The notes below the pieces were generated by a model that ran no database searches, had not been told where the DNA came from, and was given only the letters and a program-made list of their open reading frames with translations. 64,000 nt of DNA, from the IMG/VR virus record IMGVR_UViG_3300043024_000042. One strand, given 5' to 3'. The translations under genes were made by a program, and so were the position numbers. Source of the DNA: a virus (Duplodnaviria > Heunggongvirae > Uroviricota > Caudoviricetes). This document shows, in pieces, positions 8,544-34,435 of this stretch (its first letter is position 1; each line of letters starts with the position of its first letter).

Positions 8544-8795
8544 ATGGAACAAGAACAAAACAAGACCTTTCAGGAGGCGGTATTCGTTATCCTTTGCGTT
8601 ATCGCCTCCCCTATTCTGGTATTGTGCATTATCATCGACACGATACGCTCCTTTGTTAGCCTCGGTTCGAGGTTATCCTTCTATGAAGCCACGGAAACGA
8701 CACTTGACTTCGTTTTCTTTCTTGCAACCGAAATCGACGATTTAAGAAAAGTGATATGGAAAGCATTGAAAAATATAGTGCGGAGCGAGCCTTGA
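8544..8795 (+). CDS. small membrane protein
   Basis: Hydrophobic core AVFVILCVIASPILVLCIIIDTI. Confidence 0.4.
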   Translation: MEQEQNKTFQEAVFVILCVIASPILVLCIIIDTIRSFVSLGSRLSFYEATETTLDFVFFLATEIDDLRKVIWKALKNIVRSEP

Positions 8796-9798: not shown

Positions 9799-9820
9799 TC
9801 GAATCAAAAACCTTAGAGAT

Positions 9821-14341: not shown

Positions 14342-15129
14342 AAAAGTTAAGTTTCTTAAAGGTGCTTTTTATAGCACTTATTTCAATGATGATGTTCTCA
14401 TCTTGTGCAGAGCGCATTGATGCAGGACATGAAGGAATTCTCGTAAACCTCTATGGTGATGAGAAAGGTGTGGGTGACGTGTCAATGTGTACCGGCATGG
14501 TGTGGTACAACCCTATCACGACCGCGGTATACGAATATCCTACATTCGTGCAGACTGTGGACTACGAACCGTTCACCATCAATGCAAAGGATGGATCCGA
14601 GTTTACTGTGGACCCGACAATCTCCTTGAAGATTATTGACGGGAAATCTCCCGAAGTGTTTAAGAAGTACAGAAAGGAGTTGAAGGATGTAATCAATACT
14701 ACGCTCTACAATTACGTAAAGAACGCTTTCCGTATTCAGCTGAATAACTTCACTACGGATTATATTGTAAGCAATCGTGATAGTATTGAAAACGCGATTG
14801 AAAAGTATCTTTCATCAGACTTAAAGAAAGAGAATTTTCAACTGGAGCAACTTACTTCCGGCTTGAAGTATCCCGAGATTATCGTGAAGTCTGTTAACGA
14901 GAAGAACAAGGCGATACAAGACGCACAACGAGCGGAAAACGAAGTGAAGGTAGCCGAAGCCAACGCAAAGAAGGTGTTGGTGGCAGCGCAAGCGGAAGCG
15001 GAAGCAAACCGATTGAAGCAGCAGGCCCTCACTCCGCAGATTCTCGAAAAGATGTGGATTGACAAGTGGAACGGAGTTTTGCCGGTATACGGACAAGTGC
15101 CTACACTCTTTAAGGATATCAGCAAATGA
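14338..15129 (+). CDS. SPFH/band-7 (prohibitin-like) family lipoprotein
   Basis: Signal peptide with lipobox (MMMFSSCAE). SPFH-type body with a C-terminal Ala/Glu-rich coiled coil (KVAEANAKKVLVAAQAEAEANRLKQQAL). Confidence 0.6.
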   Translation: MKKLSFLKVLFIALISMMMFSSCAERIDAGHEGILVNLYGDEKGVGDVSMCTGMVWYNPITTAVYEYPTFVQTVDYEPFTINAKDGSEFTVDPTISLKIIDGKSPEVFKKYRKELKDVINTTLYNYVKNAFRIQLNNFTTDYIVSNRDSIENAIEKYLSSDLKKENFQLEQLTSGLKYPEIIVKSVNEKNKAIQDAQRAENEVKVAEANAKKVLVAAQAEAEANRLKQQALTPQILEKMWIDKWNGVLPVYGQVPTLFKDISK

Positions 15130-15383
15130 CAGCGTATTATTATGTGATAGTCTTGCTGCTCGACCTTTGGATTTGGAGGTTGAGACGCAAAGCCACAGAC
15201 TTGAAGGCCCCACGATGGATATTGCTGTTTTTCTTTCTTATCTCCTTAATACCTATTGTCGGGATGGGTCTTGAATTGGCTTTGATATACATTCTGCAAC
15301 GATGCCTTTGGGAACAAGGTGTAAGGACGAGGGGGATGATTTTATTGTTTAAGGTATATCAGTATTTCACAAAGGAGGTTTGA
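15126..15383 (+). CDS. small membrane protein, 2 TM helices
   Basis: YYYVIVLLLDLWIW...ILLFFFLISLIPIVGMGL. ATGA overlap with the SPFH gene. Confidence 0.4.
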   Translation: MTAYYYVIVLLLDLWIWRLRRKATDLKAPRWILLFFFLISLIPIVGMGLELALIYILQRCLWEQGVRTRGMILLFKVYQYFTKEV

Positions 15384-18405: not shown

Positions 18406-19204
18406 AAGAGTTATGCTTATGGTTATTTCCATTATTAACAACAAGGGAGGTGTAGGCAAGACTATGACTGCCCAAAACCTCGGTGCTGCGCTTGCCCTTT
18501 GTGGCAAGCAGGTTTGTCTTATCGACCTCGACAGCCAGCACAATCTGACCACTCGATACGAAAACACGGGAAGGGAAGAGGTTAAAGACGGTGAACTGTA
18601 TTCCAATCAGACCATTGAGGATTACATTGACAATCCACGGCTACCCATTCGCCCGTTGAAGGTGAAGGACAATCTCTATATCATCCCATCGACCACAAGG
18701 CTCGCAAGGGTGAGCGCTGCCATGTACAATCTTAGCAAGGGACAGCAACCAAGCTACAAACTTTCCAATATATGCAATGCTATGCGCCAGGGCTTCGACT
18801 ATATTATAGTGGACTGCGCACCGAGCATGAGCGCTTTGATGGTGAACGCTGCGGTAGCCGCAGACATGATCATCATCCCCGTGAGTTGTCAGGATGCCCT
18901 GATGGGAGCAGGTGAGGGTGTATTTGAGTTGATGGACAACAACAAACTCGACACTCCTTATTACTTCCTCCAGACTATCTATGAGGACCGTTTGAAGTCC
19001 AACCGCGACCGCAAGCGTCAGTTACTATCCAAGGCTTTTGACCATACTTTGCACACGGAGATAAAGAGGAATGAGTATCTGAACCTCTCTGCGGAGTGCG
19101 GTCAGGATGTGTACGAGTATGCTCCCAAAAGCAGGGGAGCGGAGGATTACATGACTTTGGCATTAGAAGTAATCGGTATTACCAGCAAAAGAAGAAAGGA
19201 GTAA
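18395..19204 (+). CDS. parA: ParA/Soj-family partition ATPase
   Basis: Deviant Walker A ISIINNKGGVGKTMTAQNLG and Walker B IIVDCAPS. 269 aa. Confidence 0.85.
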   Translation: MSIKRVMLMVISIINNKGGVGKTMTAQNLGAALALCGKQVCLIDLDSQHNLTTRYENTGREEVKDGELYSNQTIEDYIDNPRLPIRPLKVKDNLYIIPSTTRLARVSAAMYNLSKGQQPSYKLSNICNAMRQGFDYIIVDCAPSMSALMVNAAVAADMIIIPVSCQDALMGAGEGVFELMDNNKLDTPYYFLQTIYEDRLKSNRDRKRQLLSKAFDHTLHTEIKRNEYLNLSAECGQDVYEYAPKSRGAEDYMTLALEVIGITSKRRKE

Positions 19205-20272: not shown

Positions 20273-20641
20273 CTAACGGGAATGTGGAATGAAGAAGTCT
20301 GTGACAATCTTATCCAATTCCTTTTGCGTGAACGATAGGCAATAGACCTTGCTCTTGCCATCCACCAGGCCCGTTGTATACGATTCAATGAGCAATTCCC
20401 TCGTTTGATGGTCGAACAGATGTGATGGAAGTCTGTCCCGATGCTGCTTGACCAAAATGGCGAGTGGCTGCGGATTATCACCGGTCAGATACTGTTTCGC
20501 GTCGTCAAGTCCTTCCTCGTACTCAATCAGCATCTTCTCCGCAATCTGCTTTGATTCGACATCCTCATGCGCCTTGTTCCTGAAATCGTTGATGAGAGCC
20601 TTTCTTCTCTCTGCTACAACATCCGTTGTCATATCATTCAA
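20273..20641 (-). CDS. hypothetical protein with Y-x-x-G-L-D-D motifs, paralog of 289..759
   Basis: YEEGLDDAKQY and YTTGLVDGKSKVY. Confidence 0.4.
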   Translation of the reverse strand: MNDMTTDVVAERRKALINDFRNKAHEDVESKQIAEKMLIEYEEGLDDAKQYLTGDNPQPLAILVKQHRDRLPSHLFDHQTRELLIESYTTGLVDGKSKVYCLSFTQKELDKIVTDFFIPHSR

Positions 20642-21172: not shown

Positions 21173-21466
21173 TTAGAATACGTTTTCGATAGTCTGTTTT
21201 GATACTTCCATCATCAATTCATTCTCGCAATCGTCACCGGTACACAAGTAGTAGAACTCGTATTGATTAGGAAACCCGTCTATCGGTTTCTTTTCATTGC
21301 TAAGCTTTTGCTCAGCTTGGATGAAACCTATCATTTTCTTAACGCTTTCTTCTTTATAGAAAGCAAACGCTCTCTTCGCTGCACGGACATTATCGTACAG
21401 CTTAGATACATACTGAATTTGTCCTCCGTTAATTCTGCGGCAAAGCAACATGTTGTAAACTTCCAT
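21173..21466 (-). CDS. hypothetical protein, 97 aa
   Basis: ORF only. Confidence 0.4.
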   Translation of the reverse strand: MEVYNMLLCRRINGGQIQYVSKLYDNVRAAKRAFAFYKEESVKKMIGFIQAEQKLSNEKKPIDGFPNQYEFYYLCTGDDCENELMMEVSKQTIENVF

Positions 21467-21584
21467 AATCTATAAATTTGGTTTTGCAAAAATACTACAT
21501 CCCAATTGAATACGCAAATATTTTGGACTCAATCTTCGGTAGGTTTGTTCCCGAGTGCCGTTTCACGGGCACAAGGGAAATTTT

Positions 21585-21881
21585 TCAGGAGAAAATGGTG
21601 AATATACTCGCCGCATCGGATAGCCATCCCCAAAAAAAGTCTATCGTATCATCCCATCCGAGCGTCACCCAAAAGAAAGCGAAAGTCAAGATGAAGAACG
21701 GTATCATGGCAGCGGCAAGCCCCTTCCGCCCTTTCTTTGTCCGCAAATCCTCACCTTCTCCCACTATGTAGCAAGTGGCAAGAGGTATGGTTTGCAGCAA
21801 GAGGTATACGATGAATCCCCAAAAGCCAGTCTGCAAGTAGAACAGAATGACGCACAACAATCCAAATAAAATGAACGGCAT
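21585..21881 (-). CDS. small membrane protein, about 3 TM helices
   Basis: Hydrophobic translation directly downstream of the integrase gene. Confidence 0.35.
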   Translation of the reverse strand: MPFILFGLLCVILFYLQTGFWGFIVYLLLQTIPLATCYIVGEGEDLRTKKGRKGLAAAMIPFFILTFAFFWVTLGWDDTIDFFWGWLSDAASIFTIFS

Positions 21882-21882
21882 A

Positions 21883-22860
21883 TCAATAGAAATAATTAAG
21901 GGTTAATGAATTGAATTTCTCTTTCTCTGTGACGAGATACGTCTGCGTGATGGATGTGGACGAGTGACCCATAAACTTGCTTATGGTCAGGATATCCACA
22001 CCGTGCAGATAGAGGTTGCAAGCAAATGAACGTCTTGCAGTGTGCGAACCAATGTATTTGTATTTCTCCCCGATCATGCGTTTCCCGGCGAGGAATACAG
22101 ATACCTTTTGTGTGATGCCAGCCTTCTTGCAAATCTCCCGAACGTAATGGATGAAGGTTGCGAGGGAAACTTCGCGCTCTTTCGCCTGGTTGAAGTAAGT
22201 CAGGAAGTTGCGGTGCAGCGGCACTGCAATGACCGACTTGGACTTCTGCGATACGTAACGGATAATCCTGCTGTCTTCGTCAATCATCTCCTTCTCGATA
22301 AGCATAAGGTCTGACCTTCGTCCGCCAAGATAGAACTCACAGAGCCATTGCGCCTTGCAGATTCTCTCCATTTTGTTCTCCGGCTCATACGCTTCGAGTA
22401 ATGCTATGTCCGCTTCCGAGAGATACACATTCTCTGATGGCTCATCCTTAACGGATAGCACTTCCTTGTAGGATGTGGTCGGAAGTTCAACGTCGTCTCT
22501 CCATAAGTTAAGCACGGCTTTGAGGATCTTCGTGTACGTCCTTACGGTTTTCGCGCAATTCTTATCCTTCATCAGTCGGACGGTTTTAGCCAGATTCTGC
22601 TTTGTGAGGTCCTTCCATTGCGGAAACTTCTTTCCGGTACCTTCTATTACATAAGGGACGATGTTCGTACCATTATTGGGATGCTTTAATAGCAATGCAC
22701 CAACGAATGACTGCGACCACTTCTCAATGTCCTGACCTTTCTTGTAGTAACCAAGGTAGGCAATCCTTCGAGGAATTTTCGGGTCTCCAACACCGTGAAA
22801 AGCGTGTTCGTAGAGATATTTGCCAGCCTCGATTACTGGCACTGAATAACGTACTCCCAT
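21883..22860 (-). CDS. int: tyrosine site-specific recombinase/integrase
   Basis: C-terminal catalytic region HTARRSFACNLYLHGVDILTISKFMGHSSTSITQTYL (R..H..R..Y). The early-gene element and a GC hairpin (GAGCCGC...GCGGCTC) lie upstream at 22861-22920. Confidence 0.85.
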   Translation of the reverse strand: MGVRYSVPVIEAGKYLYEHAFHGVGDPKIPRRIAYLGYYKKGQDIEKWSQSFVGALLLKHPNNGTNIVPYVIEGTGKKFPQWKDLTKQNLAKTVRLMKDKNCAKTVRTYTKILKAVLNLWRDDVELPTTSYKEVLSVKDEPSENVYLSEADIALLEAYEPENKMERICKAQWLCEFYLGGRRSDLMLIEKEMIDEDSRIIRYVSQKSKSVIAVPLHRNFLTYFNQAKEREVSLATFIHYVREICKKAGITQKVSVFLAGKRMIGEKYKYIGSHTARRSFACNLYLHGVDILTISKFMGHSSTSITQTYLVTEKEKFNSLTLNYFY

Positions 22861-23088
22861 ATCGTTTGTTTTTAAGGGTTAATATTAAAGTTAATTGAGA
22901 GCCGCCTGCTTGTCATGGCACTGCGGCTCGACCCCTAAAATGCTGTGTTTTTCTCAACCTCACTTTCTTCCTCACGATTGCAAAGGTAAACAAAATTATT
23001 GATAAACATTTAAATAACAGATAATTATAACAAACTTTATGGTTCCTTGCAATCCTTTTACAGACCGCAAGGATTAAGTTAAAGAGTG

Positions 23089-23328
23089 TTAACCATTATA
23101 ATTCTTTCCGATGTAGTCCAGCAATACCTGCATATAGGAATCCTCCATCTCATAAAACATAGACATGGTGGCATAATCAGGGTGGTTGAAGTTCTCATGC
23201 CTGCTGCACCACTTATTATAGAAGTGCTGGCCCATCACCTTCCCGAAAATCTTCTCGGCTGTTTCATTACTCCATTCATTTGACATGAAGAGAATCACCT
23301 TTCTAAAGTCTTTTGCTTTCATAATCAT
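23089..23328 (-). CDS. small hypothetical protein, about 80 aa
   Basis: First ATG directly downstream of the conserved element is at 23328 (MIMKAKDF..). The ORF-track extension to 23433 runs through the upstream element. Confidence 0.45.
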   Translation of the reverse strand: MIMKAKDFRKVILFMSNEWSNETAEKIFGKVMGQHFYNKWCSRHENFNHPDYATMSMFYEMEDSYMQVLLDYIGKNYNG

Positions 23329-23384
23329 TTGTTTTAAAGGGTTAGTATTCGCAGCAAGCGGGATTGTCACATCCCGCCAGCCAA

Positions 23385-23729
23385 TCATAATTGGTTGAAT
23401 CCGATAATCGTTTCTTCCAGCCGGTCCTTCCAATCATCGTAATCGTCAAGAGCCTTTCGGATTGTGAAACATTCTCGAAATTTCGGGTCATTCCACTGGC
23501 TCATCAGTTCCTCATCGGCATCGAAATCGTTGTAGTATTCTTCAAGATTCTCGATGGTAAATGGGGTAAGCGAGATGATCATGTCAATGTCATGCTCTGT
23601 CCACGATTCAACCTCTGCGCAGATTCCCTCTTTCTGTCGGAACAAATGTACGTTGTAGTCATTGTCACACAGATAATCGTAGAGTCTTTTCTGCTCTTTG
23701 TCTAACATTTCATACGTTACTTCTTCCAT
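23385..23729 (-). CDS. highly acidic small protein, candidate DNA mimic or anti-defense factor
   Basis: Very Asp/Glu/Tyr/Trp-rich (YYNDFDADEELMSQWNDPKF..DDYDDWKD). Conserved upstream element at 23733-23752. Confidence 0.45.
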   Translation of the reverse strand: MEEVTYEMLDKEQKRLYDYLCDNDYNVHLFRQKEGICAEVESWTEHDIDMIISLTPFTIENLEEYYNDFDADEELMSQWNDPKFRECFTIRKALDDYDDWKDRLEETIIGFNQL

Positions 23730-23795
23730 ATTGCTTGTTTTAAAGGGTTAATAATCGCTGGAGGGTAGCGTACTACCGCAAGCCCTCCATAATAC

Positions 23796-24353
23796 CTACT
23801 CACCTTTGTAGACATAATTCCCGTCTACTAACTCATAATCACTCTTGCACTCTTCCCAAAGTTGGAACACGATATCCCAAGCCTCACGAGCATTTGGATC
23901 AGGATGATTACTGTCAGTTTCCTCTCCGTTTTGTATGACAAGGAATCCGCAGTTATATGTGAAATCCTCGTCAACGTATGTCAGTTCAAAGGCAACATCG
24001 GGGAACTTCTTGGAGAGCGCAAGTATGGCGGGCTTCGGCGTGTCCCACGGAGTTGTAAAGAAACACAAATGCCTTTCACGATTAATGAATACTTCGTCGG
24101 TGTTCCATTTGCATCCCCACTTATCCCATCTCCAATCATGCCAGTCAGCATAGCCGTATTTTCTCTTGTTGGATTCTCTACGGTTCTCGCGCTCCTTCTG
24201 ATTTAGACCGGTGATATCCAATCCCTTGGGCATCGGTACAATTTTGTTGAGGTCAAAGTCACTCTCATCGCTACGCACGAAGTCAAACACTGCGTTTACA
24301 GCCTCCATGTCGTCACTTACAATTACCAAACCGTTACGTACTTCATTTGCCAT
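23796..24353 (-). CDS. hypothetical protein, 185 aa, Trp-rich
   Basis: Upstream element at 24357-24372 plus hairpin GGCGG..CCGCC. Confidence 0.45.
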   Translation of the reverse strand: MANEVRNGLVIVSDDMEAVNAVFDFVRSDESDFDLNKIVPMPKGLDITGLNQKERENRRESNKRKYGYADWHDWRWDKWGCKWNTDEVFINRERHLCFFTTPWDTPKPAILALSKKFPDVAFELTYVDEDFTYNCGFLVIQNGEETDSNHPDPNAREAWDIVFQLWEECKSDYELVDGNYVYKGE

Positions 24354-24413
24354 AATCTAATTATTTTAGGGTTAATAATCGCGAGGCGGGCGGCTATCAA
24401 ACCGCCATCCTCT

Positions 24414-24650
24414 TTAGTACCGCTCTATCAGTCTTGACTTTCTCGGCTTACTGTGCAGATAATCTCGCTCTATTGTGGCGAACGTGCCATTATGGAGGAT
24501 GCCGTATCGCCAAAGTTTCACAAACAGCGGTTTCTCACCATACTGCTCGATGTACATCTTGGTACCGGAGTTGCTGGTGAATTCCTCGTAATGATAGATG
24601 CGTGTCATATCACCACATGATTTCAAGGTCGCCACTTCCATCAAACTCAC
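24414..24650 (-). CDS. hypothetical protein, 78 aa
   Basis: Overlaps the upstream gene by about 40 nt. Probably translationally coupled. Confidence 0.35.
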   Translation of the reverse strand: MSLMEVATLKSCGDMTRIYHYEEFTSNSGTKMYIEQYGEKPLFVKLWRYGILHNGTFATIERDYLHSKPRKSRLIERY

Positions 24651-24963
24651 GCTCCAAGACCGACATCATCCAGTCGTATGCCTGGCCGTAAAGTATGGTG
24701 GATGGTTTACGGTCCTCGAAATTCACTTCATCAGGGTAGGATACTTTCAGATATCCCACATGGCCATCAGGCGAAGTTGCAACAAATTCGCTTTTGGCAA
24801 GCCGCACATACAGCCTGACCATACCGAAGATTTTAACCTTGCACAGCTCAAAGGAAATGCTTGTACCGTCACCATTCTTAGTGATGAACACTTTCGCAGT
24901 TACACCATACGGTGTTCTGTTCTGAATCTTAACGAAGTCAGAACGCAGATCATTTTTCTTCAT
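24610..24963 (-). CDS. hypothetical protein, 117 aa
   Basis: Variant of the upstream element at 24967-24985. Confidence 0.4.
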   Translation of the reverse strand: MKKNDLRSDFVKIQNRTPYGVTAKVFITKNGDGTSISFELCKVKIFGMVRLYVRLAKSEFVATSPDGHVGYLKVSYPDEVNFEDRKPSTILYGQAYDWMMSVLEREFDGSGDLEIMW

Positions 24964-25025
24964 ATCTCTAAAATTTATTGGTTACACATCGTATGCACCG
25001 GGCCTGCCAAAGCCCGGCACACAAT

Positions 25026-25409
25026 TCAGGATTCACTAATCTCGTCATTATCATCGGTGCAGACGAACTCCATATCGGGGTATACTTTCCGCATCATGCC
25101 CAGCAGCCTCTCCATATTACCATGAGGTGTGATGTCATGGAACTCCACGGACAGCCTGCGGTCGGGCAGTGTACTCACACCTATGTAGTCAATCACGTGC
25201 CAGCTGAGGTCGTCGAGCAGTGCGCTTGTTGCAAGCTCCTTGATGGAGCCATGCACCTTGTCAATATCGAACTCCTTCACCAAATCATCAGAATCTTCCT
25301 GCGACTTGGTAATGGAGTGGAACCACGCGAAGAATGACTTCGCCATCTTGTCTGTGCCCATGCACTCTACGTACTTTTTGATGTTGTTTGCCATAATCTT
25401 ACCCTTCAT
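25026..25409 (-). CDS. hypothetical acidic protein
   Basis: ATG at 25409, or alternatively 25394. Overlaps or abuts the stop of the upstream gene. Confidence 0.4.
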   Translation of the reverse strand: MKGKIMANNIKKYVECMGTDKMAKSFFAWFHSITKSQEDSDDLVKEFDIDKVHGSIKELATSALLDDLSWHVIDYIGVSTLPDRRLSVEFHDITPHGNMERLLGMMRKVYPDMEFVCTDDNDEISES

Positions 25410-25830
25410 GTAATTCACTGAGATTCGCTTCCACCTCGCTTGTACCATCGGTAAGGAGGATAATCATATCCTCATACCAATAACCCTCGTTCGAGCGGAT
25501 TTTGGATACCTTGTAGTATCCTGACGTTCCTTTCGGGTCGGGGTCATTCCAATACACTTCGTTGCCGACGCGGACGAAAGGATAACGCTCTCTCAATCTC
25601 TCGTTCTCCTTCTTTTCGTTGTCGTACCAAGTATTGATAATCTCGTCGAAACTTTGCAGTTTGTCGTACAGACCTTTCTCTTTGAGAAGTGGGCGAATCT
25701 TGTACATGGCTTCCGCGATAATCTCATTGCACTCAACCTCTATATCCGAATCCTCGAAGTAGGAGGTGTAGATGTGAGCGTTTTGCAGGCTCTGCATCAT
25801 GTTGTACGCAGCATAATCATTTCCTTTCAT
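25399..25830 (-). CDS. acidic protein with an RLRxxYPFxxVG domain shared with 28661..29425
   Basis: ATG at 25830 downstream of the element at 25838-25855. C-terminal ERLRERYPFVRVGNEVYW..YYKV.. is paralogous to RRLRAEYPFLKVGAYVRV..IYKV.. in 28661..29425. Confidence 0.45.
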   Translation of the reverse strand: MKGNDYAAYNMMQSLQNAHIYTSYFEDSDIEVECNEIIAEAMYKIRPLLKEKGLYDKLQSFDEIINTWYDNEKKENERLRERYPFVRVGNEVYWNDPDPKGTSGYYKVSKIRSNEGYWYEDMIILLTDGTSEVEANLSELHEG

Positions 25831-25898
25831 ATCAATTCTTCTTTTAGGGTTAATGAATAATTGCGGAATAGCGGACTTGTTCAGCCCGCTAAACCATG

Positions 25899-26267
25899 TC
25901 ACTTGCTCATCTCCTTAATGGCTTTTCGCAACATCTCAATATCGCCAATGCACGGATCACCATCCTCGAGCGGCCAGTAGTACGCTCCATTCGGGATGTA
26001 GATGCGGTCAGAGAACTCGGTCTTATCAACATCCGTAATGAAGAGGAACTTTACCTTGTCCTTGATATACCAGAACCAATATTCAGTCCATTCCCAATCT
26101 TCTATCTGATGGTGGCTTATCTCACAGAACTTGTGGACGTTCTTGATGTCGTCGCCACAAAGTTTGAATAACTTGTCGATGCCTTCCCAGGCCTTGGCGA
26201 TGTTCTTAGCCTTTTCTACGGTCATGCGTTCACGCTTTGCATCTTGCAATGAATCTTCTCTTGTCAT
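25899..26267 (-). CDS. hypothetical acidic protein, 122 aa
   Basis: Upstream element at 26272-26290. Confidence 0.4.
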   Translation of the reverse strand: MTREDSLQDAKRERMTVEKAKNIAKAWEGIDKLFKLCGDDIKNVHKFCEISHHQIEDWEWTEYWFWYIKDKVKFLFITDVDKTEFSDRIYIPNGAYYWPLEDGDPCIGDIEMLRKAIKEMSK

Positions 26268-26332
26268 AATCTAATAATTTAAATGGTTAAACAATAGCCA
26301 GCCGGTATGATGCCACTCATACCGACCCTTCC

Positions 26333-26545
26333 TTAATGCAGAAGTTTCTCAATCTCGAATCGCAACAAGTTTTTAGTGAGAGCCTTGCCTCCACATAACA
26401 CACCATTCAGAATACATGAGAACTCATAACCGGGGATTGGAGCCATGTGGCTTGTAAACGCAATGGCAATGCTGCGCTTATACTTTCCAACCTGCTCATC
26501 GTTGAGGATAATCCTTCCGTCATGTGATAATGTCAAATGATTCAT
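26333..26545 (-). CDS. small hypothetical protein, 71 aa
   Basis: ATG at 26545 (MNHLTLSHDG) downstream of the element at 26553-26570. Confidence 0.4.
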   Translation of the reverse strand: MNHLTLSHDGRIILNDEQVGKYKRSIAIAFTSHMAPIPGYEFSCILNGVLCGGKALTKNLLRFEIEKLLH

Positions 26546-26609
26546 AATACAATGTTTAAATGGGTTAATATCGCAGCCGATGCGGTTACTGCACCGCAAG
26601 GGCTTTCAA

Positions 26610-27005
26610 TCAACATCCGTACTCGCTGATTGCCGTGAGAATCAGGCTGCCGATTTGATTGTACTCTGCTTTAAAGGCTATCTGCTTTAACGAGCCGAAC
26701 GAGCCAAGCAACTTCAAGCAGTAGTCCTTCAAGAACTCGTACTCTTCCACGTACTGAGTCTTATCGCTTACGGAGTGGAGAATCTGCAAGTCGATTACGT
26801 TATCCAACTCGCTTTCAAAGAATCGGTCAAACGTGATGTAGTCATTCAGGTAAACCAAGTAGAGGTTGGTACACCAATTCCCATCGCAATAACTGCGCTC
26901 ACTGCCGTACCTTTCCTGATTTTCCTTGCTGAACTTCTCGCTGCATTGCTTTATGAACTCTGCAACCAGCTGCCCTCTTCTTTTCTTCTTGATGATGAAT
27001 TGCAT
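26610..27005 (-). CDS. hypothetical protein, 132 aa
   Basis: ATG at 27005 (MQFIIKKKRRGQ). Confidence 0.4.
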   Translation of the reverse strand: MQFIIKKKRRGQLVAEFIKQCSEKFSKENQERYGSERSYCDGNWCTNLYLVYLNDYITFDRFFESELDNVIDLQILHSVSDKTQYVEEYEFLKDYCLKLLGSFGSLKQIAFKAEYNQIGSLILTAISEYGC

Positions 27006-27064
27006 ATCTATTAATTTTGGTGAAACATCGTACCCGTCCGCAGTGTCACCCACGGACGGACTTT

Positions 27065-27388
27065 CTACAACTTCGATAGGTTCACTTCATCGAATCTTTT
27101 AAAGAGGGCCTTGATGATGTCGTAGAGGGCAAGTATAGCACCCAGCGTGCATTTCTCATCCTCCGCACTGAACCAAGGTTTCTTTCTCGCGTAACCGTAG
27201 AAACTTTTCAGACATCGCTGCCCAATCTCCGAATCGGCTACCTCCTTCATGGTTATCACATTACCTCCGCTCGTCAGGTACACCCTTAACGCTTTCTCCC
27301 GCAAGTCAAGATGGAGGTTTCCTTTGAACCAAGCGTCCTTGATGAAGTACAAGTACGCTGCCTTTCTTGTTTTTCGTGAGTATATCAT
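27065..27388 (-). CDS. hypothetical protein, 108 aa
   Basis: ATG at 27388 (MIYSRKTRK). Confidence 0.4.
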   Translation of the reverse strand: MIYSRKTRKAAYLYFIKDAWFKGNLHLDLREKALRVYLTSGGNVITMKEVADSEIGQRCLKSFYGYARKKPWFSAEDEKCTLGAILALYDIIKALFKRFDEVNLSKL

Positions 27389-27543
27389 GTCTTTCACTAA
27401 TAATGGTTTACTAATCTTGTAGCCGGGATAGGTATTACCCACATCCCGACCGATGGGATTTATAATCCCGAATCATGCGACAAATGTAGGCGATTAAATT
27501 TGAATCACCAAACAATTAACGCACTTTTAACACGCTTTTATAA

Positions 27544-28212
27544 TTAAGCGACAAAATCATACGGATCACCATTCTCTCGAAATTCAAGATCGCGCTCCTT
27601 TAGTTCTTCCTCCACAAACTCGTCGGTGCTACCGTATTCAATATCACGATTCCATGCTTTAATAAACCCGGAAACCGCCTTTTTAACTAAACTCTCATAG
27701 GTAGTTGTATTATCCGGATGTTTCATCCATTCGACGAACGGTTGTACAAGAGGGTAATCGCAATACAAACCAGTTAACCCACATTCATCATCTTCGTAGT
27801 ATGTGATTCGGCTTGTACGTGTCTTAGTCCTCCCGTCTTTGGCCTGATGCGGCCATAAATAATATTCCTTCATCCCAGATAGCGGGAAGATATTATTCTG
27901 CAAATACCTCCACAGTAACTTGCCATGAAGTTCTCGCAGATATATCGGGGTGTCCGTTCTCTCATCGAAAGAGAATATAAACTCATCGGCATACAGACCA
28001 CTCCACAAGATATTAAAACCGTCATACTCGTCGATTTCCACTCTGTAAAGTCCGAATATTTTTTCAAACTCTTTAAGTGATTCTCTGTAATCGCATCCAA
28101 CAGAGTCGTTGTTAAGTTCAGAAATCTGCTCACGGCTCTTCTTGATGGCTACTTTCTTTGATTTCTCACTCAATTCATTGAAATGGTACACGTTAAATTC
28201 AATCTTTCTCAT
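27544..28212 (-). CDS. hypothetical protein, 222 aa, Tyr/Trp-rich and acidic
   Basis: Upstream element at 28222-28240 plus hairpin. Confidence 0.45.
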   Translation of the reverse strand: MRKIEFNVYHFNELSEKSKKVAIKKSREQISELNNDSVGCDYRESLKEFEKIFGLYRVEIDEYDGFNILWSGLYADEFIFSFDERTDTPIYLRELHGKLLWRYLQNNIFPLSGMKEYYLWPHQAKDGRTKTRTSRITYYEDDECGLTGLYCDYPLVQPFVEWMKHPDNTTTYESLVKKAVSGFIKAWNRDIEYGSTDEFVEEELKERDLEFRENGDPYDFVA

Positions 28213-28286
28213 ATCAATAATTTTTAGGGGTTAAACATTGTCGTGCAGTCAGATTTTATTCTGGCCGCACATTAGGATGCAATCTA

Positions 28287-28598
28287 TCAGTGGCTGAAAT
28301 TAGGGTTATCCTTAATAAACACTAAGGCTACCCAAACATTTTCGGGCTGTACCTTGTTATTTAAGGAAACTACCAATCCATCAAGTTCCATTATGCCTAA
28401 GTTGTGCCCTCTGTTAATATATTCGGCTTCCACTTTGAAAGACTTTTTAAGCCGATTATATAAGTCACTCAAATTGTCGAAACGCTTATCAAAGAACGCA
28501 TCGTCAAAACCTTGCCTGTCGATATCCGCTTGCCCGATTCGCATAGGACATTCAAAGAAATACGGTCTGTAACCGTCTTTTGTCAATAATGTACTCAT
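28287..28598 (-). CDS. hypothetical protein, 103 aa
   Basis: Variant upstream element at 28608-28625. Confidence 0.4.
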   Translation of the reverse strand: MSTLLTKDGYRPYFFECPMRIGQADIDRQGFDDAFFDKRFDNLSDLYNRLKKSFKVEAEYINRGHNLGIMELDGLVVSLNNKVQPENVWVALVFIKDNPNFSH

Positions 28599-28660
28599 GA
28601 TCTAAATGCTTAATTGGTTAATATTGTTACCCGACACGCTGCCACACGTGCCGGATAATG

Positions 28661-29425
28661 TTAGGCTGCGATGCTCATGTACTCATAAGCCGCGTCATAC
28701 ACCTCTTTACACTCTTTCTCTCCGTACTCACTGACAAACCCATCATTCTCTTTAATCCATCCCCAATAGTAGCCGTAGTTTAAGTCGTCGCAGCAATTAG
28801 CGAAGAAGTCGCGCTGCCAAGAATTGCGCTCGTACTTATTGATTAACTCATCCATACGCTCCATACGCTTGACCTCTTCATTATCGCCTGCACGAAGTTC
28901 CTCTATATCCTCGATGAATACGGTGGCATCCTTGCAGTTGTCGTTCTTGACGTGTACCAGGGTAAGATTTTCCCATAACTCATCCTCGATTCCGATTACT
29001 TTGTAGATTCCGTCATAAACATCCTCGGCACCAAATACTCGGACGTAAGCACCAACTTTCAAGAACGGATATTCCGCTCTCAGTCGTCTGTCCTCTTTTA
29101 CCTCTTCGGGGTCGTCCTTGACAAACGGATCCTCGTCGATGTAGTTCCACCAGTAGTCAATCAGGTGGCTATCGTCGTCGTAGTCGTACCAATCTGCCCT
29201 TGCAAAGTCCCCGTCATTCTTGTGGGTATCGTTATACTCATCCGCAATCTTTTGCAGGTAGTCGGTGTACCCTTCAAAGAAGTCAAGAACCGATTCAGTT
29301 GTAAGTTGCAGATTGTTGCGGTAGTCACTGTAATCCATACTGCCAATGCGGACCTGCTTTCTCAACTCAATCAAACCTTTGTCAGTTAAGCAACCATTCT
29401 CGTCAAAATACTCTTTCTTTTCCAT
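28661..29425 (-). CDS. large acidic Trp/Tyr-rich protein, paralogous C-terminal domain to 25399..25830
   Basis: Net charge strongly negative (YDDDSHLIDYWWNYIDEDPF). Upstream element at 29438-29455. Confidence 0.45.
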   Translation of the reverse strand: MEKKEYFDENGCLTDKGLIELRKQVRIGSMDYSDYRNNLQLTTESVLDFFEGYTDYLQKIADEYNDTHKNDGDFARADWYDYDDDSHLIDYWWNYIDEDPFVKDDPEEVKEDRRLRAEYPFLKVGAYVRVFGAEDVYDGIYKVIGIEDELWENLTLVHVKNDNCKDATVFIEDIEELRAGDNEEVKRMERMDELINKYERNSWQRDFFANCCDDLNYGYYWGWIKENDGFVSEYGEKECKEVYDAAYEYMSIAA

Positions 29426-29496
29426 GTCTATAATGTTTTAGGGGTTAATAATCGCTGAGCGGACACTTATTAGAGCAATCCGCCCAAAATTGTAGT

Positions 29497-29850
29497 TTAA
29501 GCTGAGTGATACCTTTTAACATTATTCCATACTAAGTTGGCCCATGTGCTATTCCAGGTAGAGTTTGCATCCTGCTCGGTGAGGAAATTGAAGATGCCCT
29601 CGGCACCATCTATTCCTCGCACGAATGTTTTTCTAACCTGAATCGTAAACTCACGTTTCTCGTCCACTTTTACATCATACGTCCTTGTCTCTCCGTCCTT
29701 GGTGATGGACAGTAGGTTGGGATTTCCGTTGTAGATGGAGATTTGCCAATTCACGTCATGGTAGCCGATGCACTTATGTTGTACTTGGCCATTCTCCATG
29801 GGAATCACTTCAAACTCGTGTTTACGCTCTACAAAATTCATACTTGCCAT
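29497..29850 (-). CDS. hypothetical protein, 118 aa
   Basis: ATG at 29850 (MASMNFVERKH). Upstream element at 29862-29880. Confidence 0.4.
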   Translation of the reverse strand: MASMNFVERKHEFEVIPMENGQVQHKCIGYHDVNWQISIYNGNPNLLSITKDGETRTYDVKVDEKREFTIQVRKTFVRGIDGAEGIFNFLTEQDANSTWNSTWANLVWNNVKRYHSA

Positions 29851-29913
29851 AACTAAATGTATTAGGGTTAATAATTGCTGAGCGCCCACCCGCCAAGGTA
29901 GCCGCCCATAAGT

Positions 29914-30201
29914 TCAGCGTGTTGCCAAGTCAATATTCAACCACGACCTTCTAACATCCGCTTGAATATCCACGTTCCCGTCCAGTGTTCTAAGGTAGAA
30001 GTGCTTTGTGTCCTTGTTAAACCATGTGTCGAATGTGCCACCATTATTCTTCAAACAATGATGAAAAAACTCGTACCGGTTATTCAGGCACTCCATCGCT
30101 TGCTGTTCGTTGTCGAATGTTGTCACTTCGGGTTTGTTAGTCACTCCAAGATAGGTGGAGATAATGACTACACTGAATAATGCTTTTGGATTCATATTCA
30201 T
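29914..30201 (-). CDS. small secreted protein with an N-terminal signal peptide
   Basis: MNMNPKALFSVVIISTYLGVTNKPEV. Upstream element at 30206-30224. Confidence 0.4.
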   Translation of the reverse strand: MNMNPKALFSVVIISTYLGVTNKPEVTTFDNEQQAMECLNNRYEFFHHCLKNNGGTFDTWFNKDTKHFYLRTLDGNVDIQADVRRSWLNIDLATR

Positions 30202-30259
30202 TTTAATTAGGGGTTAATAATCGCAGGCGGAACGTCTGCTAAAACGAACCGCCCATCCA

Positions 30260-30871
30260 TCATTCTTCTTGCCTGCTCTTTGCGATGCACATAGCACAGA
30301 AGTCACGTCCGACCCAGTTCTCGCTCTGATAGTCATAACCGCCCTGAAACTTGATTACGTTGCCAAGGAGGAACGTGTAATACACAACCTTTGGCGATTT
30401 CACGACTTTCATGCGCTCCTCATCGACTTTAAGGGGTTTCTCGCTTTCACGATACGTCTGCGTGAAGAACTGGGCGAAATCGCCATCATCCATGAATTCA
30501 TCAATTCGCAACACCACGTTCACTTCGTACCAACCGCTGTTCCATCTCATTTTCAACTCGCTGTAATCAACAAACTCATGGCGGTGTGCGGTCATAACGT
30601 AGTCTACGGTCTGCAAGACACCTCTCGCACTGCTTATGTCACTCTGCTCTGTCATTGGAAAGGCTTGCATGATTATGCCCAACTTCTTCGGTGTGAGTAT
30701 GTCCGTATCACTTTCACCACCGTAGAACTTAACATAGTACCTGCCGTCCTTAACCATGAAGATTGATGCGCGTACACCTTTCGGCTCGAGGTCGCGATTC
30801 AACTCATTTTCGAGTTTGGCGATTTTCAACTTTCGCTCGAACTCCGCTTTCATTTTCTCAATATCATTCAT
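30260..30871 (-). CDS. hypothetical protein, 203 aa
   Basis: Upstream element at 30880-30897. Confidence 0.45.
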   Translation of the reverse strand: MNDIEKMKAEFERKLKIAKLENELNRDLEPKGVRASIFMVKDGRYYVKFYGGESDTDILTPKKLGIIMQAFPMTEQSDISSARGVLQTVDYVMTAHRHEFVDYSELKMRWNSGWYEVNVVLRIDEFMDDGDFAQFFTQTYRESEKPLKVDEERMKVVKSPKVVYYTFLLGNVIKFQGGYDYQSENWVGRDFCAMCIAKSRQEE

Positions 30872-30935
30872 ACGTTCAATATTAAAGGGTTAAACAATGC
30901 AGGCGACCCGCTTATCAAAGCAAGTCGCCATTCTT

Positions 30936-31277
30936 TTACGAGAATTGGTGAATGTGCTGGCGCAACCATTTTGTTTCATCGGGCCAACTTTGCCCTGCAC
31001 AATAGGTTGCTCTACCATCTAAATCAATCCACAATCGCTCGCATAGTCCACACGATCTATACAAAGTGTATAAGTCGTCTTTCTTTCGCAAATCAATAGT
31101 CTTAGCGAAGAGATTAACAATTTGCGTGCGCGCCTCGTCGGATAGTTGGAAACGCACCCATTTACGCTTTTTTGTGTAAATTGCACCAGCAATAAAGTTA
31201 TGCAGCGTAAGTCTGCCATCTCTCGTTTGTGCGATTAAGCCTTTCAATGTCTTGTAATTCCTTGTAATCATACTCAT
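30936..31277 (-). CDS. hypothetical basic protein, 113 aa
   Basis: Variant upstream element at 31295-31310. Confidence 0.4.
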   Translation of the reverse strand: MSMITRNYKTLKGLIAQTRDGRLTLHNFIAGAIYTKKRKWVRFQLSDEARTQIVNLFAKTIDLRKKDDLYTLYRSCGLCERLWIDLDGRATYCAGQSWPDETKWLRQHIHQFS

Positions 31278-31355
31278 TTGAATTTAGTGAAACATAGGGT
31301 TAATATAGTAGCCGTGCAGATAGTTAAACCTGCATGGCCTAAGTCTGAATACAAA

Positions 31356-31784
31356 TTAGAGGTAATCCGGAATAAATTCAAGAAGTTCCTTGATAGACGT
31401 GGAATCATCGTTTAAATCATGTTCCAAATCCTCTCTGTACTTATTAATTTCGGAAGGTTGGAGGTTGCGTAAAATATCCCAAAGGAATTTGCGCTTTTCC
31501 TTTCGTTCGGTCGGCATCAGGTCGTTCTCCCACATATCGGGATTGCAATCCATGCCCCAATCTTCAAAAAGTCTGCGTTTCGCTCCAAAGCTTAAAAGTC
31601 GCGCGGAGTGTACCTTGCAGTACAAACTTACGATTTTAAAGACTTTATTTAAGCGCCCGTTCTCATTTTGTGTCCGAAAATTGAGACACCCGTAATCACG
31701 CAGTGCCAAATCATAATGTAATTCCTTAATGCGCTTTTCCTGCTCCAGCAGTTCGCGCGGAGTTCTTTTCCTTATCATACTCAT
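31356..31784 (-). CDS. hypothetical protein, 142 aa
   Basis: Upstream element at 31790-31808. Confidence 0.4.
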   Translation of the reverse strand: MSMIRKRTPRELLEQEKRIKELHYDLALRDYGCLNFRTQNENGRLNKVFKIVSLYCKVHSARLLSFGAKRRLFEDWGMDCNPDMWENDLMPTERKEKRKFLWDILRNLQPSEINKYREDLEHDLNDDSTSIKELLEFIPDYL

Positions 31785-31842
31785 TCATTTTAGGGTTAAT
31801 AATGCAGGCCCGCGGGTTGTCACACCACGTCGGGCCGTTCGC

Positions 31843-32103
31843 TCATCGAACGTGAAGGTTAACTTCCTGGATCGTATACAAGTTCTCGATACCATCCTTG
31901 AACTTAAAGGTGGCGCACCACGTTTCTTTATCGTAGTGGCCTACACCGTCGTTAAAGTCGTGACCGAGTTGCTCCAGCAAGTTCCGGATATACTCTTCGG
32001 CAAGTTCCAATTCACCAAAGCGTTCGCGCCAACATTCATCCCATGTACGGGAATCGGGGTCGTAGGTTTCCTCTATCACCTCGTAGATTTTCTTAATAGT
32101 CAT
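31843..32103 (-). CDS. small acidic protein, 87 aa
   Basis: ATG at 32103 (MTIKKIYEVIEETYDPD). Upstream element at 32112-32130. Confidence 0.4.
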   Translation of the reverse strand: MTIKKIYEVIEETYDPDSRTWDECWRERFGELELAEEYIRNLLEQLGHDFNDGVGHYDKETWCATFKFKDGIENLYTIQEVNLHVR

Positions 32104-32167
32104 AATGTTTGCTTTTAAAGGGTTAATAGTCGATGCCGCCCACCAAAGGGCAGGCACCGGAGGTCGT

Positions 32168-32497
32168 TCAGGCGAAATAAATCTGGCACATATTGTTCGC
32201 ATTACGGAAATAGTGCAGTGAATCACGGAACGGATCCATGATTCGTTTCACCCGCTCGCTGTCCTGCTTGCAGATTTTCACGATGATATTGCTCAGGGAA
32301 CGCACCCTGAATTCGAGAATGGCGGAACGCTTGTGCAGTTGACGGTAGTCGTTCAGCGTTTTCTTACACACGCTCGCTCTGCGCAAATTGTTCAGTGAAT
32401 TGGTCACGCTCTCAATCTCATCATACATTCTGTCCATCACAGCCAGGGCACGGCGCTCGTTGAACGTCATACCCGATTCGTCAATCTTTCTATTCAT
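32168..32497 (-). CDS. hypothetical protein, 109 aa
   Basis: Variant upstream element at 32505-32525. Confidence 0.4.
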   Translation of the reverse strand: MNRKIDESGMTFNERRALAVMDRMYDEIESVTNSLNNLRRASVCKKTLNDYRQLHKRSAILEFRVRSLSNIIVKICKQDSERVKRIMDPFRDSLHYFRNANNMCQIYFA

Positions 32498-32664
32498 ATC
32501 TATAAATTTTATTGGTTAATTATCGTACTCCGTGATTGTTTTACCAATAACACGGAGCTGGGGTTAATCAGAGGTCGAAAATCGGACTCCACTCAAAACT
32601 ATCTTCCAGTTCGGGAAGGTACACCAAATTACCGTTCATTACCATTTCCGCGTTCATAATCCGT

Positions 32665-32817
32665 TCACTTTAAAGATTCCACATAACACATTACACTCAC
32701 ACTGCCAAAGAAACACAGCAGGAATACGGCCGCGCTTACATAGGAATTACCGAATAAGGGTGTTGCGAGAATACCCAGGGCGAGCAGATAACGCACGCAG
32801 TTCATAAACTTCTTCAT
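32665..32817 (-). CDS. small membrane protein, 50 aa, not in the ORF track
   Basis: ATG at 32817 six nt downstream of the element at 32823-32842. MKKFMNCVRYLLALGILATPLFGNSYVSAAVFLLCFFGSV. Confidence 0.4.
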   Translation of the reverse strand: MKKFMNCVRYLLALGILATPLFGNSYVSAAVFLLCFFGSVSVMCYVESLK

Positions 32818-32881
32818 ATCATTTGTTTTTAGGGGTTAATAATCGCACCGCGGGGAATTGTCGTACTCACCCGCGGCCATC

Positions 32882-33160
32882 TTAGCAAGGGCGCCAGCCG
32901 TTTCTCGTCTGCCAGTAGGCCGATTCAATCAAATATTCAGCCAGATTGTTCGCCGCCTCTTTCATCTCGCCCTCATCGGGTCGCTCATCGCACATGGGCA
33001 CGGCATCTGCAATCATCTGGCGAACTTTCAACATTCGCGCCACGGCTCGTTTTACCGGATTCTCGCCTCTTACAATCTGTTTTGCCAAGAGGAATATCAC
33101 ACGGTCCATCCGGGCCTCAAACTTACGGTCGTTCGTGACCACTACACTCAGTACTTCCAT
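32882..33160 (-). CDS. hypothetical protein, 92 aa
   Basis: Upstream element at 33168-33188. Confidence 0.4.
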   Translation of the reverse strand: MEVLSVVVTNDRKFEARMDRVIFLLAKQIVRGENPVKRAVARMLKVRQMIADAVPMCDERPDEGEMKEAANNLAEYLIESAYWQTRNGWRPC

Positions 33161-33226
33161 ATCATTTAATTTTAGGGGTTAATAATGTATCCGTGTGAAT
33201 TATCGTACTCACACGGAATTCTCGTA

Positions 33227-33448
33227 CTACGGAGGCAGGCCTATCAAGTCGGTTTCCCTGAACTTGTAGGCCGCAAGCAATTCCCGTACATCTTTACTCA
33301 GTTCAACCCGTGGAATCATAATGAATTCGTTCGGCTGAACACGCAGCTCAACCACCTTAATAAGGTAGTGCAGGACAAAAGCCAGATCACTCGTGGAAAT
33401 CTGACTTGCTTTTACTCTGTACGCTTTTCTCGTACTCATTCGTATCAC
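33227..33448 (-). CDS. hypothetical protein, about 71 aa
   Basis: GTG at 33448, or ATG at 33439. Variant upstream element at 33455-33475. Confidence 0.35.
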   Translation of the reverse strand: MIRMSTRKAYRVKASQISTSDLAFVLHYLIKVVELRVQPNEFIMIPRVELSKDVRELLAAYKFRETDLIGLPP

Positions 33449-33533
33449 ATCTATTTTAAGGGTATTTTAAGGCCCGCCAGTGAGTTTTCACACTCAAAGG
33501 CGGTAAAGTGTACGCGCGGGGAATAAAACGCGC

Positions 33534-33830
33534 TTAAATCGCAGTTTTCAGCCGTGCGTAATTACGTTTCGCCTCGTTCAGGCCGTTTGCCAGTTCGCAG
33601 ATTCTTCTTGCAAGGTTCTTGCAAGCGTTCTCCACCTCGTAGGGCGCAACCTGTTCGGGTATCCGTTCGATGAAATCATCTACAATCGCATGAAGTTGGT
33701 TGAATCGTGAAACGGTGCGCGCGTTCATTACGCTGCCGCCCTCTTCGATTTTGATCGCTACGTACTCAATGATTCTCATAATGCGGCCCATGTAGTTACC
33801 GCTCTTCCAGATTCTTTCTTCGATTTTCAT
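33534..33830 (-). CDS. hypothetical protein, 98 aa
   Basis: Upstream element at 33838-33858. Confidence 0.4.
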   Translation of the reverse strand: MKIEERIWKSGNYMGRIMRIIEYVAIKIEEGGSVMNARTVSRFNQLHAIVDDFIERIPEQVAPYEVENACKNLARRICELANGLNEAKRNYARLKTAI

Positions 33831-33899
33831 ATCATTTAATTTTAGGGGTTAATAGTGCAGCCCTGCCGGTTGTCACACCATGCAGGGCCGAAGAAAGAT

Positions 33900-34025
33900 T
33901 TACGCTATCTTTGCAACCGTCCAGTTCAAAGATTCTGCATACTCACTCAACACGTTTTTATCCGTGTCAATCATTCTCACTTGATTCTGTTCGTCCAGGA
34001 GTCCGAATAATTCATTTTGTTTCAT
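33900..34025 (-). CDS. small protein, 41 aa, not in the ORF track
   Basis: ATG at 34025 directly downstream of the element at 34030-34048. MKQNELFGLLDEQNQVRMIDTDKNVLSEYAESLNWTVAKIA. Confidence 0.35.
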   Translation of the reverse strand: MKQNELFGLLDEQNQVRMIDTDKNVLSEYAESLNWTVAKIA

Positions 34026-34093
34026 ATCACAAATTTTTAGGGGTTAAACAATAAGTAAGCGAACCACCGGTAAGAGTGATTCGCTTTAATCGT

Positions 34094-34405
34094 TCAGGCG
34101 ATTTTTACTTTGATTCCATGCGCCTGGAGTTGTTCGGCTGTAAAACCGTATCGAATGATTTTCTTTTTAAGTGATTCGATAAAACACTTCTTTTGATAGT
34201 CAAACTCTTCTTGATCCAGTTGCCCGTTCAAAAATCGTTCGCGCGCACCTTTCAGCGTATCGTAGTCAATAACCGCTGAAAGCAGATTAATTTCAGGCGA
34301 GCCGAATTCAAGGTGTTTTCGTTCGCCCCGCTCGTTCGGCTCGTTTGCGGCACGGCGCAAATTCATCTTTGCTTTTCGCTCGTACCAGTCCATCATTCCT
34401 AACAT
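34094..34405 (-). CDS. hypothetical protein, 103 aa; first gene of the minus-strand block next to the candidate origin
   Basis: Upstream element at 34412-34432. Confidence 0.4.
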   Translation of the reverse strand: MLGMMDWYERKAKMNLRRAANEPNERGERKHLEFGSPEINLLSAVIDYDTLKGARERFLNGQLDQEEFDYQKKCFIESLKKKIIRYGFTAEQLQAHGIKVKIA

Positions 34406-34435
34406 ATCATTTAATTTTAGGGGTTAATACTAAAT

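Follow-up and report, generated by a model that had tools for sequence, protein, structure and literature searches.

The 64,000-nt stretch of viral DNA analyzed here (hereafter, the window) represents a temperate, LoVEphage-like Bacteroidales siphophage and carries on its minus strand, at 20.3-34.4 kb, a run of about 27 small genes. The findings described below concern positions 23385..29425 of this strand together with the surrounding array, which is a hyperplastic accessory region of the phage whose acidic products are candidates for host-directed proteins. The first-pass annotation of the window had singled out five open reading frames (ORFs) in this stretch as paralogous, very acidic, Trp/Tyr-rich products with the compositional signature of DNA-mimic inhibitors. 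All five are real ORFs on the minus strand, namely, 23385..23729, 25399..25830, 25899..26267, 27544..28212 and 28661..29425; for the second of these, the ATG at 25830 is preferred to a longer ORF starting with GTG because of the position of the upstream box described below.

The compositional signal is real, being strong in two proteins, moderate in two or three and weak in 25899..26267. When the 80 non-overlapping ORFs of the window were ranked by net charge per residue, the most acidic product was that of 23385..23729 (114 aa, isoelectric point, pI, 4.12, net charge -20), followed by those of 28661..29425 (254 aa, pI 4.27, net -34), 25399..25830 (143 aa, pI 4.58, net -12) and, in the fourth place, 23796..24353 (minus strand; 185 aa, pI 4.59, net -15), a gene absent from the original list of five. 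The products of 27544..28212 (222 aa, pI 4.88, net -13) and 25899..26267 (122 aa, pI 5.24, net -5) ranked 9th and 14th, respectively. Such profiling of pI and charge supports the description "very acidic" strongly for 23385 and 28661, with a moderate signal in 25399 and 27544, but not for 25899..26267, given its pI, its small net charge and its rank. The four top-ranking ORFs all belong to the 12 ORFs located at 23-29.5 kb, a grouping with a chance probability of about 3e-4 (hypergeometric). The reported aromatic richness is likewise real but modest, with Trp+Tyr accounting for 8.8-11.4% of the residues in the five proteins vs a window mean of 6.7% (sd 2.6), and the block differs in this respect from the rest of the window (Mann-Whitney p = 0.002).

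Nearly every small gene of the region is preceded by a unit that combines a hairpin with a short box; 23 such units, with the box pattern (A/T)T(T/A)AACC(A/C/T), form an array at 21900..34428 of the minus strand. In each unit, a GC-rich hairpin of variable sequence is followed by (G)CGATTATTAACCC(Y)TAAAA, with the ATG located about 15 nt past AACCC; the core box is ATTATTAACCC and its extended form is ATTATTAACCC(Y)TAAAA. The exact 8-mer ATTAACCC occurs in 18 copies in the window, all of them on the minus strand and within the 12.5 kb of 21900..34428. The hairpins upstream of the 23 box sites have a mean folding free energy (dG) of -16.6 kcal/mol vs -7.3 +/- 4.4 at random positions of the region, and strong hairpins are present at about 20 of these 23 sites. 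All five listed genes carry the unit, as exemplified by 23730..23795 (minus strand), where a GC-rich hairpin is followed by AGCGATTATTAACCCTTTAAAAC and by an ATG about 15 nt past AACCC; in L146, a close relative of the phage, this unit stands before another gene.

The proposal that each gene possesses its own promoter-like element holds with respect to the repeated hairpin-box element itself, but this element is not sigma-70-like. A scan of the sequence for sigma-70 promoters revealed no enrichment (32 sites vs 27.7 expected), a scan for canonical intrinsic terminators revealed none either, and a search of the 19-36 kb region against Rfam produced no match. The consensus of Bacteroides promoters is TAnnTTTG, and the box resembles neither this nor the Escherichia coli sigma-70 promoter. 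A similar layout with a variant box, ATTAACCAWTTAAAAC, is present in a related metagenomic phage, L001, whereas a scan of viral contigs for GCGATTATTAACCC yielded scattered single chance matches only. One further candidate for a related array, L120, with 6 matches to the box motif, was rejected, the matches being coding-sequence coincidences. The hairpin probably functions as a terminator or insulator, and the box might be a phage-specific promoter or a short leader. The units also bear on gene starts: for the ORF listed as 23089..23433 (minus strand), the most likely start is the ATG at 23322..23320 (MKAKDFRKV...), which has its own upstream hairpin and ACTAACCC box and coincides with where the orthologs in L146 and L001 begin; the resulting gene, 23089..23322, therefore does not overlap 23385..23729.

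Comparison of positions 21427..32238 of the window with positions 1..14092 of L146, in which the integrase and the gene for the 254-aa protein are at 95% identity to those of the window, shows that single genes are gained, lost and replaced between close relatives by recombination at the hairpin-box units. The single-gene cassette 23385..23729 is missing from L146 as a clean indel that ends within the box, and 27544..28212 and 28287..28598 are missing as well. Between the gene for the 254-aa protein and the next shared genes, L146 encodes a 215-aa protein with a net charge of -31 and RadC; in place of window positions 29497..31784, it contains unrelated genes, including one for a DUF4121 protein, with only the hairpin-box units of about 50 nt being conserved. 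The breakpoints of the exchanged cassettes fall in these units. Within this one pair of genomes, the identity of shared genes ranges from 95% down to 40%, with the orthologs of 25399..25830 and 25899..26267 at 71% and 55%, respectively; L001 has only three gene families in common with the block. The block is thus a phage accessory region of single-gene cassettes with fast turnover, in which hyper-acidic proteins are over-represented. The related arrays are rich in acidic products too: pI is below 4.7 for about 13 of the 28 genes of L146 and for 9 of the 28 genes in the L001 array. Further hyper-acidic proteins that match no family are encoded at 6657..7304 of L146 (the 215-aa protein, net -31) and at 9619..9948 (109 aa, net -25) and 14601..15311 (236 aa, net -32) of L001.

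The largest of the five proteins, the 254-aa product of 28661..29425, led to an extensive domain family. Its AlphaFold2 (AF2) model, built on a 69-sequence alignment, has a predicted local distance difference test (pLDDT) score of 86.5 and divides into three parts, in which a beta barrel formed by residues 127-170 is flanked by a helical domain on its N-terminal side and a helical bundle on its C-terminal side. The N-terminal domain (29105..29395, minus strand) is hyper-acidic, with a net charge of -17 over 105 aa, and predicted to be helical (pLDDT about 90 in the model). The middle domain (28892..29104, minus strand) is a predicted Tudor/SH3-like beta barrel with the RLRxxYPFxKVG motif. The C-terminal domain (28664..28891, minus strand), with the motif WQRDFF..C.DDL.YG..WGWIKENDGFV, is modeled as helices spanning residues 179-253 with pLDDT above 90 and also occurs on its own as a protein of about 55 aa, as in P0107 and P0143, which match profile positions 201-250.

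A word-index search with the 254-aa protein found two close homologs only, and a scan of viral contigs produced no match. In an exhaustive profile search, 226 representatives were retrieved at E<=1e-3, nearly all of which cover residues 13-105 only, and a second search, with a 55-sequence alignment of this N-domain segment, retrieved 351 clusters at E<=1e-5, all of which lack a Pfam domain and are named "hypothetical protein" at best. The N-domain profile had no sequence match in the PDB and none among the other proteins of the window, and searching PHROGs with family members gave nothing usable. The family is delineated by a match to the profile, the motifs LR..(I/V), S..(D)Y.N, (D)FF(D/E)GY and YD...L..(W/Y), and a net negative charge; residues 11-107 of the 28661..29425 product match the family profile with 88.8 bits. 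The consensus of the domain is LR.QI.LGS.Y.SDY.N...V.DFFDGY..YL.EL.EE...YDN.ENL..WY; in the family alignment (A2), R22, F50 and D83 are invariant, and L21, S29, D34, Y35, N37, F49 and L88 are nearly so. The domain mostly stands alone, with medians across 123 members of 98 aa, a net charge of -16, a pI of 4.05 and 17% Phe+Trp+Tyr. Judging by these sequences, the N-domain of about 98 aa defines a large, unannotated, uniformly hyper-acidic and aromatic-rich family of gut mobile elements. The retention of hyper-acidity in hundreds of diverged members points to selection acting on the charge.

In a genome scan that used a 10-sequence subset of the alignment, N-domain members were found in metagenome-assembled genomes of rumen and gut Clostridia and in Prevotella and Muribaculaceae, where they are encoded within arrays of small unknown genes of prophages or integrated elements, next to genes for DUF2958, DUF932, Bro-N/ANT, DpnD-PcfM, RhuM, integrases and Sequestin. 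The domain also occurs as a tandem duplicate and in fusions with many partners, among which are a domain of about 105 aa that recurs, segments resembling zinc ribbons and a weakly matching DpnD/PcfM-like domain. In one such fusion, the metagenomic protein P0009 (243 aa), the N-terminal half is homologous to the product of 23385..23729 (72 bits over 105 aligned residues) and the C-terminal half is the acidic N-domain, which links the two most acidic products of the window through the joining of their domains in a single protein. The C-terminal partner domain of the 201-207-aa fusions was considered as another homolog of 23385..23729, and this was not supported (hhalign probability 2.6%). On L145, a 157-kb metagenomic contig, a Sequestin gene (PF21825; 1537..1842) lies about 6 kb upstream of a gene for a 202-aa N-domain fusion (8001..8609) in one co-oriented array of small genes; Sequestin is a validated anti-Thoeris sponge (bioRxiv 10.1101/2025.07.12.664507).

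Beyond this fusion, the five proteins have little in common, and their description as paralogous families was overstated. An all-against-all comparison identified two related pairs only; among the acidic five, 25399 and 28661 share a domain, and the others are mutually unrelated. BLASTP aligns the products of 25399 and 28661 over an 18-aa motif only (E 4e-5); positions 104-175 of the profile of the 254-aa family align with residues 69-141 of the 25399 product (25408..25626, minus strand) with 30.5 bits and an E value of 4e-10, delimiting a common domain of about 72 aa. By structural similarity, this domain is a predicted five-stranded barrel of the Tudor/SH3-like type in both proteins. The C-terminal domain that the first-pass annotation had attributed to this pair is shared indeed, but it is such a barrel and not a DNA-mimic module. 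The N-terminal half of 25399..25830 has no match, and the notion that it arose from the acidic N-domain by degeneration was rejected (E 0.98). The second pair comprises 229..759 (plus strand, pI 8.3) and 20273..20641 (minus strand, pI 5.7), which share the YExGLDDA motif; these are true paralogs (31% identity over 95 aa, E 4e-10), as had been proposed, but they are not acidic.

For the remaining proteins of the block, database matches were few. A word-index search with the 114-aa product of 23385..23729 found 1 close relative; its AF2 model, obtained from only 3 sequences (pLDDT 78; predicted template modeling score, pTM, 0.72), has a predicted topology of a helix, three strands and three helices. 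The neighboring 23796..24353 product contains a DUF1281_C (Api92-like, ferredoxin-like) domain (Pfam PF18406; 57.8 bits vs a cut-off of 22.8) and matches phrog_12644 at 1e-28; its homologs are encoded in plasmids and phage-like elements of Enterobacteria and Bacteroidales, the latter including circular elements, adjoining genes for LPD11, DUF4313 and SSB, and the literature holds no functional data on DUF1281. The product of 27544..28212 is a member of phrog_10310 over its full length (E 4.5e-25; residues 4-218 vs positions 6-211 of the 212-position profile), a group with no function assigned in PHROGs. A scan of viral contigs with this 222-aa protein gave no match; its homologs, at 28-32% identity, come from Chi-like phages of Salmonella and E. 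coli and from Brevibacillus phages, where they are encoded in small-gene arrays and all annotated as hypothetical. No family match in Pfam, PHROGs or the PDB was obtained for the product of 25899..26267. Gene 25026..25448 (minus strand) encodes a 140-aa protein with a weak match to the immunity protein family Imm2 (E 2.7e-4, below the Pfam threshold) and is among the few genes of the block conserved in L001 (33% identity) as well as in L146 (78%).

The rest of the genome provides the context for this array. Among its products are a large terminase that contains a LAGLIDADG insert (43306..46011, minus strand), an SPP1-type portal (41561..43318), a D5-type primase-helicase (36993..38498), ParA (18413..19204) and, inside the accessory block, a tyrosine integrase (21883..22860). 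The LAGLIDADG_3 domain occupies residues 294-354 of the large terminase subunit, before the Terminase_6N domain, which suggests an intein or a homing-endonuclease insertion. In the left arm, genes on the plus strand code for a PAPS-reductase-domain protein (1299..2189), a C5 cytosine methylase (10619..11590) and a protein with a weak radical-SAM match (13361..14176), which together could form a DNA-modification module for self-protection. A tRNA-Met (CAT) gene is located at 46527..46600 (plus strand), just upstream of the structural gene block, and a single ORF of the structural arm (52494..62300, plus strand) encodes a protein of 3268 aa, perhaps a tail, tape-measure or polyvalent protein of giant size. 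The sole DNA similarity to deposited phages is a weak stretch at 70% identity common to Bacteroides LoVEphage and BI-TP1, and megablast of the block against GenBank phages gave no match.

How might these observations be explained? In the scenario that we favor, the minus strand at 20.3-34.4 kb is a hyperplastic accessory region in which nearly each of the approximately 27 small genes sits behind its own hairpin and box, and the acidic proteins of 23.4-29.4 kb are mostly unrelated cassettes, with the 23385 product and the 28661 N-domain linked via the fusion. The acidic modules would be host-directed effectors produced after phage entry, which might block basic, nucleic-acid-binding host proteins (restriction, CRISPR, BREX, nucleoid) through electrostatic, nucleic-acid-like competition, and partner domains, such as the Tudor/SH3-like barrel of 25399 and 28661, might supply the contacts with the targets. 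We regard the acidic cassette proteins as reasonable but unproven candidates for a role in anti-defense or host takeover, to which we give slightly less than even chances. This assessment draws on four lines of evidence: a conserved charge density in the range of ArdA, a turnover like that of conflict genes, the company of neighboring genes and a weak topological resemblance to AcrIIA4. The diversifying anti-defense arsenal envisaged in the first-pass annotation is accordingly borne out as far as a variable phage array is concerned, with genes in cassettes of their own that are gained, lost and replaced between close relatives, and the related arrays also hold RadC, DUF4121, DpnD/PcfM and, once, Sequestin; yet none of the proteins matches a known anti-defense family. 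A bolder proposition is that the domain of about 98 aa, found in at least 351 clusters, is a new, widespread nucleic-acid-mimicking anti-defense module that occurs alone or fused to a Tudor-like barrel, the 23385-type domain, a DpnD/PcfM-like domain or zinc ribbons, and is shuffled in Bacteroidales phages as cassettes similar to promoter(early)-stem-loop (PeSL) elements; this we consider doubtful.

Several results weigh against an anti-defense function. In a Pfam scan (E<=0.1), none of the five proteins matched Ocr, the ArdA model (PF07275) or the ArdB/KlcA and anti-CRISPR (Acr) models; NCBIfam and the PDB, searched by sequence, gave no match for the proteins, and PADLOC, which covers defense systems, gave none that was significant. 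The fold searches returned no Ocr or ArdA, and the helical N- and C-terminal domains of the 254-aa protein matched no solved fold, the whole-model searches being dominated by the barrel. By sequence comparison, then, the acidic proteins fall outside Ocr, ArdA and all known Acr families. Moreover, the model of the 23385..23729 product is built on 3 sequences with a pLDDT of 78, 25899..26267 and 27544..28212 are not unusually acidic, and small acidic ORFans are frequent in phage accessory regions regardless of role.

The strongest alternative is that the proteins are ordinary phage ORFans involved in replication, tuning of lysogeny, host metabolism or transcription takeover, with the acidity and aromatic content being incidental and without mimicry. 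Besides the lack of a match to anti-defense families, this explanation accommodates the mutual unrelatedness of the five proteins, the mild or moderate acidity of two of them and the generic nature of the fold matches (Tudor barrel, KA1-like). It fits less well with the grouping of the four most acidic ORFs of the window within 6 kb, with the hyper-acidity kept across the N-domain family (median net charge of -16 over 98 aa) and with the high turnover of cassettes between near-identical phages, as typical of conflict genes; we consider it somewhat unlikely, albeit a serious contender. Since the phage is temperate and its integrase gene (21883..22860) lies within the block, the cassettes could instead be moron-type genes for lysogenic conversion or superinfection exclusion, expressed from the prophage and guarding the lysogen against other phages or elements. 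The layout of one gene, one promoter and one hairpin is indeed the classic architecture of lambdoid morons, but the box differs from host promoters, both of the sigma-70 and of the Bacteroides type, so that expression in the lysogen is not implied, no PADLOC defense model is matched significantly, and the proteins are small, soluble and acidic, without enzymatic or membrane domains, all of which makes this explanation improbable.

Still less probable is a function as immunity or antitoxin-like proteins, in which tight acidic-basic binding would neutralize basic nuclease or toxin domains that the phage itself carries or that competitors deliver. Charge complementarity would suit such a role, and the neighboring gene 25026..25448, conserved in L001 and L146, has the weak Imm2 match (E 2.7e-4); this match, however, is below the Pfam cut-off, no recognizable toxin partner adjoins any of the acidic genes, and the genes form single-gene cassettes rather than pairs. 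Finally, sponges of nucleotide immune signals, like Tad1/2, Acb2 and Sequestin, are comparably small, and the array that encodes one N-domain member also contains a Sequestin gene about 6 kb away, but a strongly negative protein would be a poor binder of anionic nucleotides and neither sequence nor fold searches matched known sponges, so this last alternative is very improbable.

Whichever function the acidic cassette proteins perform, two aspects of the region appear worth pursuing: the hyper-acidic domain, whose large family lacks annotation, and the occurrence in a Bacteroidales phage of a PeSL-like system of hairpin-box cassettes. Phages of gut Bacteroidales and Clostridia are difficult to culture and, to our knowledge, their anti-defense genes are almost unknown. 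Genes of the cassettes that differ between near-identical phages amount to natural experiments of gain and loss, and the large hyper-acidic family can be screened directly against panels of defense systems. The hairpin-box unit marks accessory cassettes and could be used for finding such arrays in metagenomes and for engineering these phages. If the acidic domain does mimic nucleic acids, it would represent a new and widespread class of inhibitors; if not, the region would still be a clear case of PeSL-like modular shuffling outside the T4-type phages.

Among known systems, the DNA mimics ArdA and Ocr were the original point of reference. The charge density of ArdA is about -0.17 per residue, compared with -0.175 for the 23385..23729 product and a median of about -0.165 for the N-domain family. 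The compositional signature of a DNA mimic is thus retained in the sense of an ArdA-like charge density in two proteins, but it concerns composition only and is not specific to ArdA. Like ArdA and Ocr, which reside in variable establishment or early regions of mobile elements, the 23385 product and the N-domain family are small, cytoplasmic, strongly acidic and encoded in variable regions of mobile elements. In contrast to ArdA and Ocr, with which there is no sequence match, their predicted folds are alpha-beta3-alpha and compact helical, respectively, rather than an elongated helical dimer, which in Ocr mimics bent B-DNA by means of surface carboxylates. AcrIIA4 is an anti-CRISPR protein of alpha-beta3-alpha-alpha fold that mimics PAM (protospacer-adjacent motif) DNA; the modeled topology of the 23385..23729 product is weakly similar to it, which is a lead and not evidence of membership.

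A different kind of resemblance is to stand-alone versions of the domains of polyvalent proteins, which are encoded by phages and conjugative elements (Iyer et al. 2017, PMC5512222) and in which small modular domains are recombined in different fusions. The N-domain is likewise joined to the Tudor-like barrel, the 23385-type domain, a DpnD/PcfM-like domain or zinc ribbons, and the neighbors include RadC, LPD11, DUF4313 and DUF1281_C. Unlike polyvalent proteins, however, the proteins described here have at most 3 domains, and no Pfam model, LPD or other, matches the acidic domain.

With regard to the organization of the array, the closest parallel is provided by T4-type phages, whose hyperplastic regions contain PeSL promoter-terminator cassettes (PMC2839356, PMC4122927). 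The present array differs from these in its box, ATTATTAACCC(Y)TAAAA, in belonging to a temperate Bacteroidales siphophage rather than a T4-like myovirus, and in that the promoter role of the box is putative here. In both systems, a stem-loop and a conserved promoter-like box flank each small ORFan, and where genes are swapped between close relatives, with the breakpoints in the cassettes, only the units of about 50 nt are conserved.

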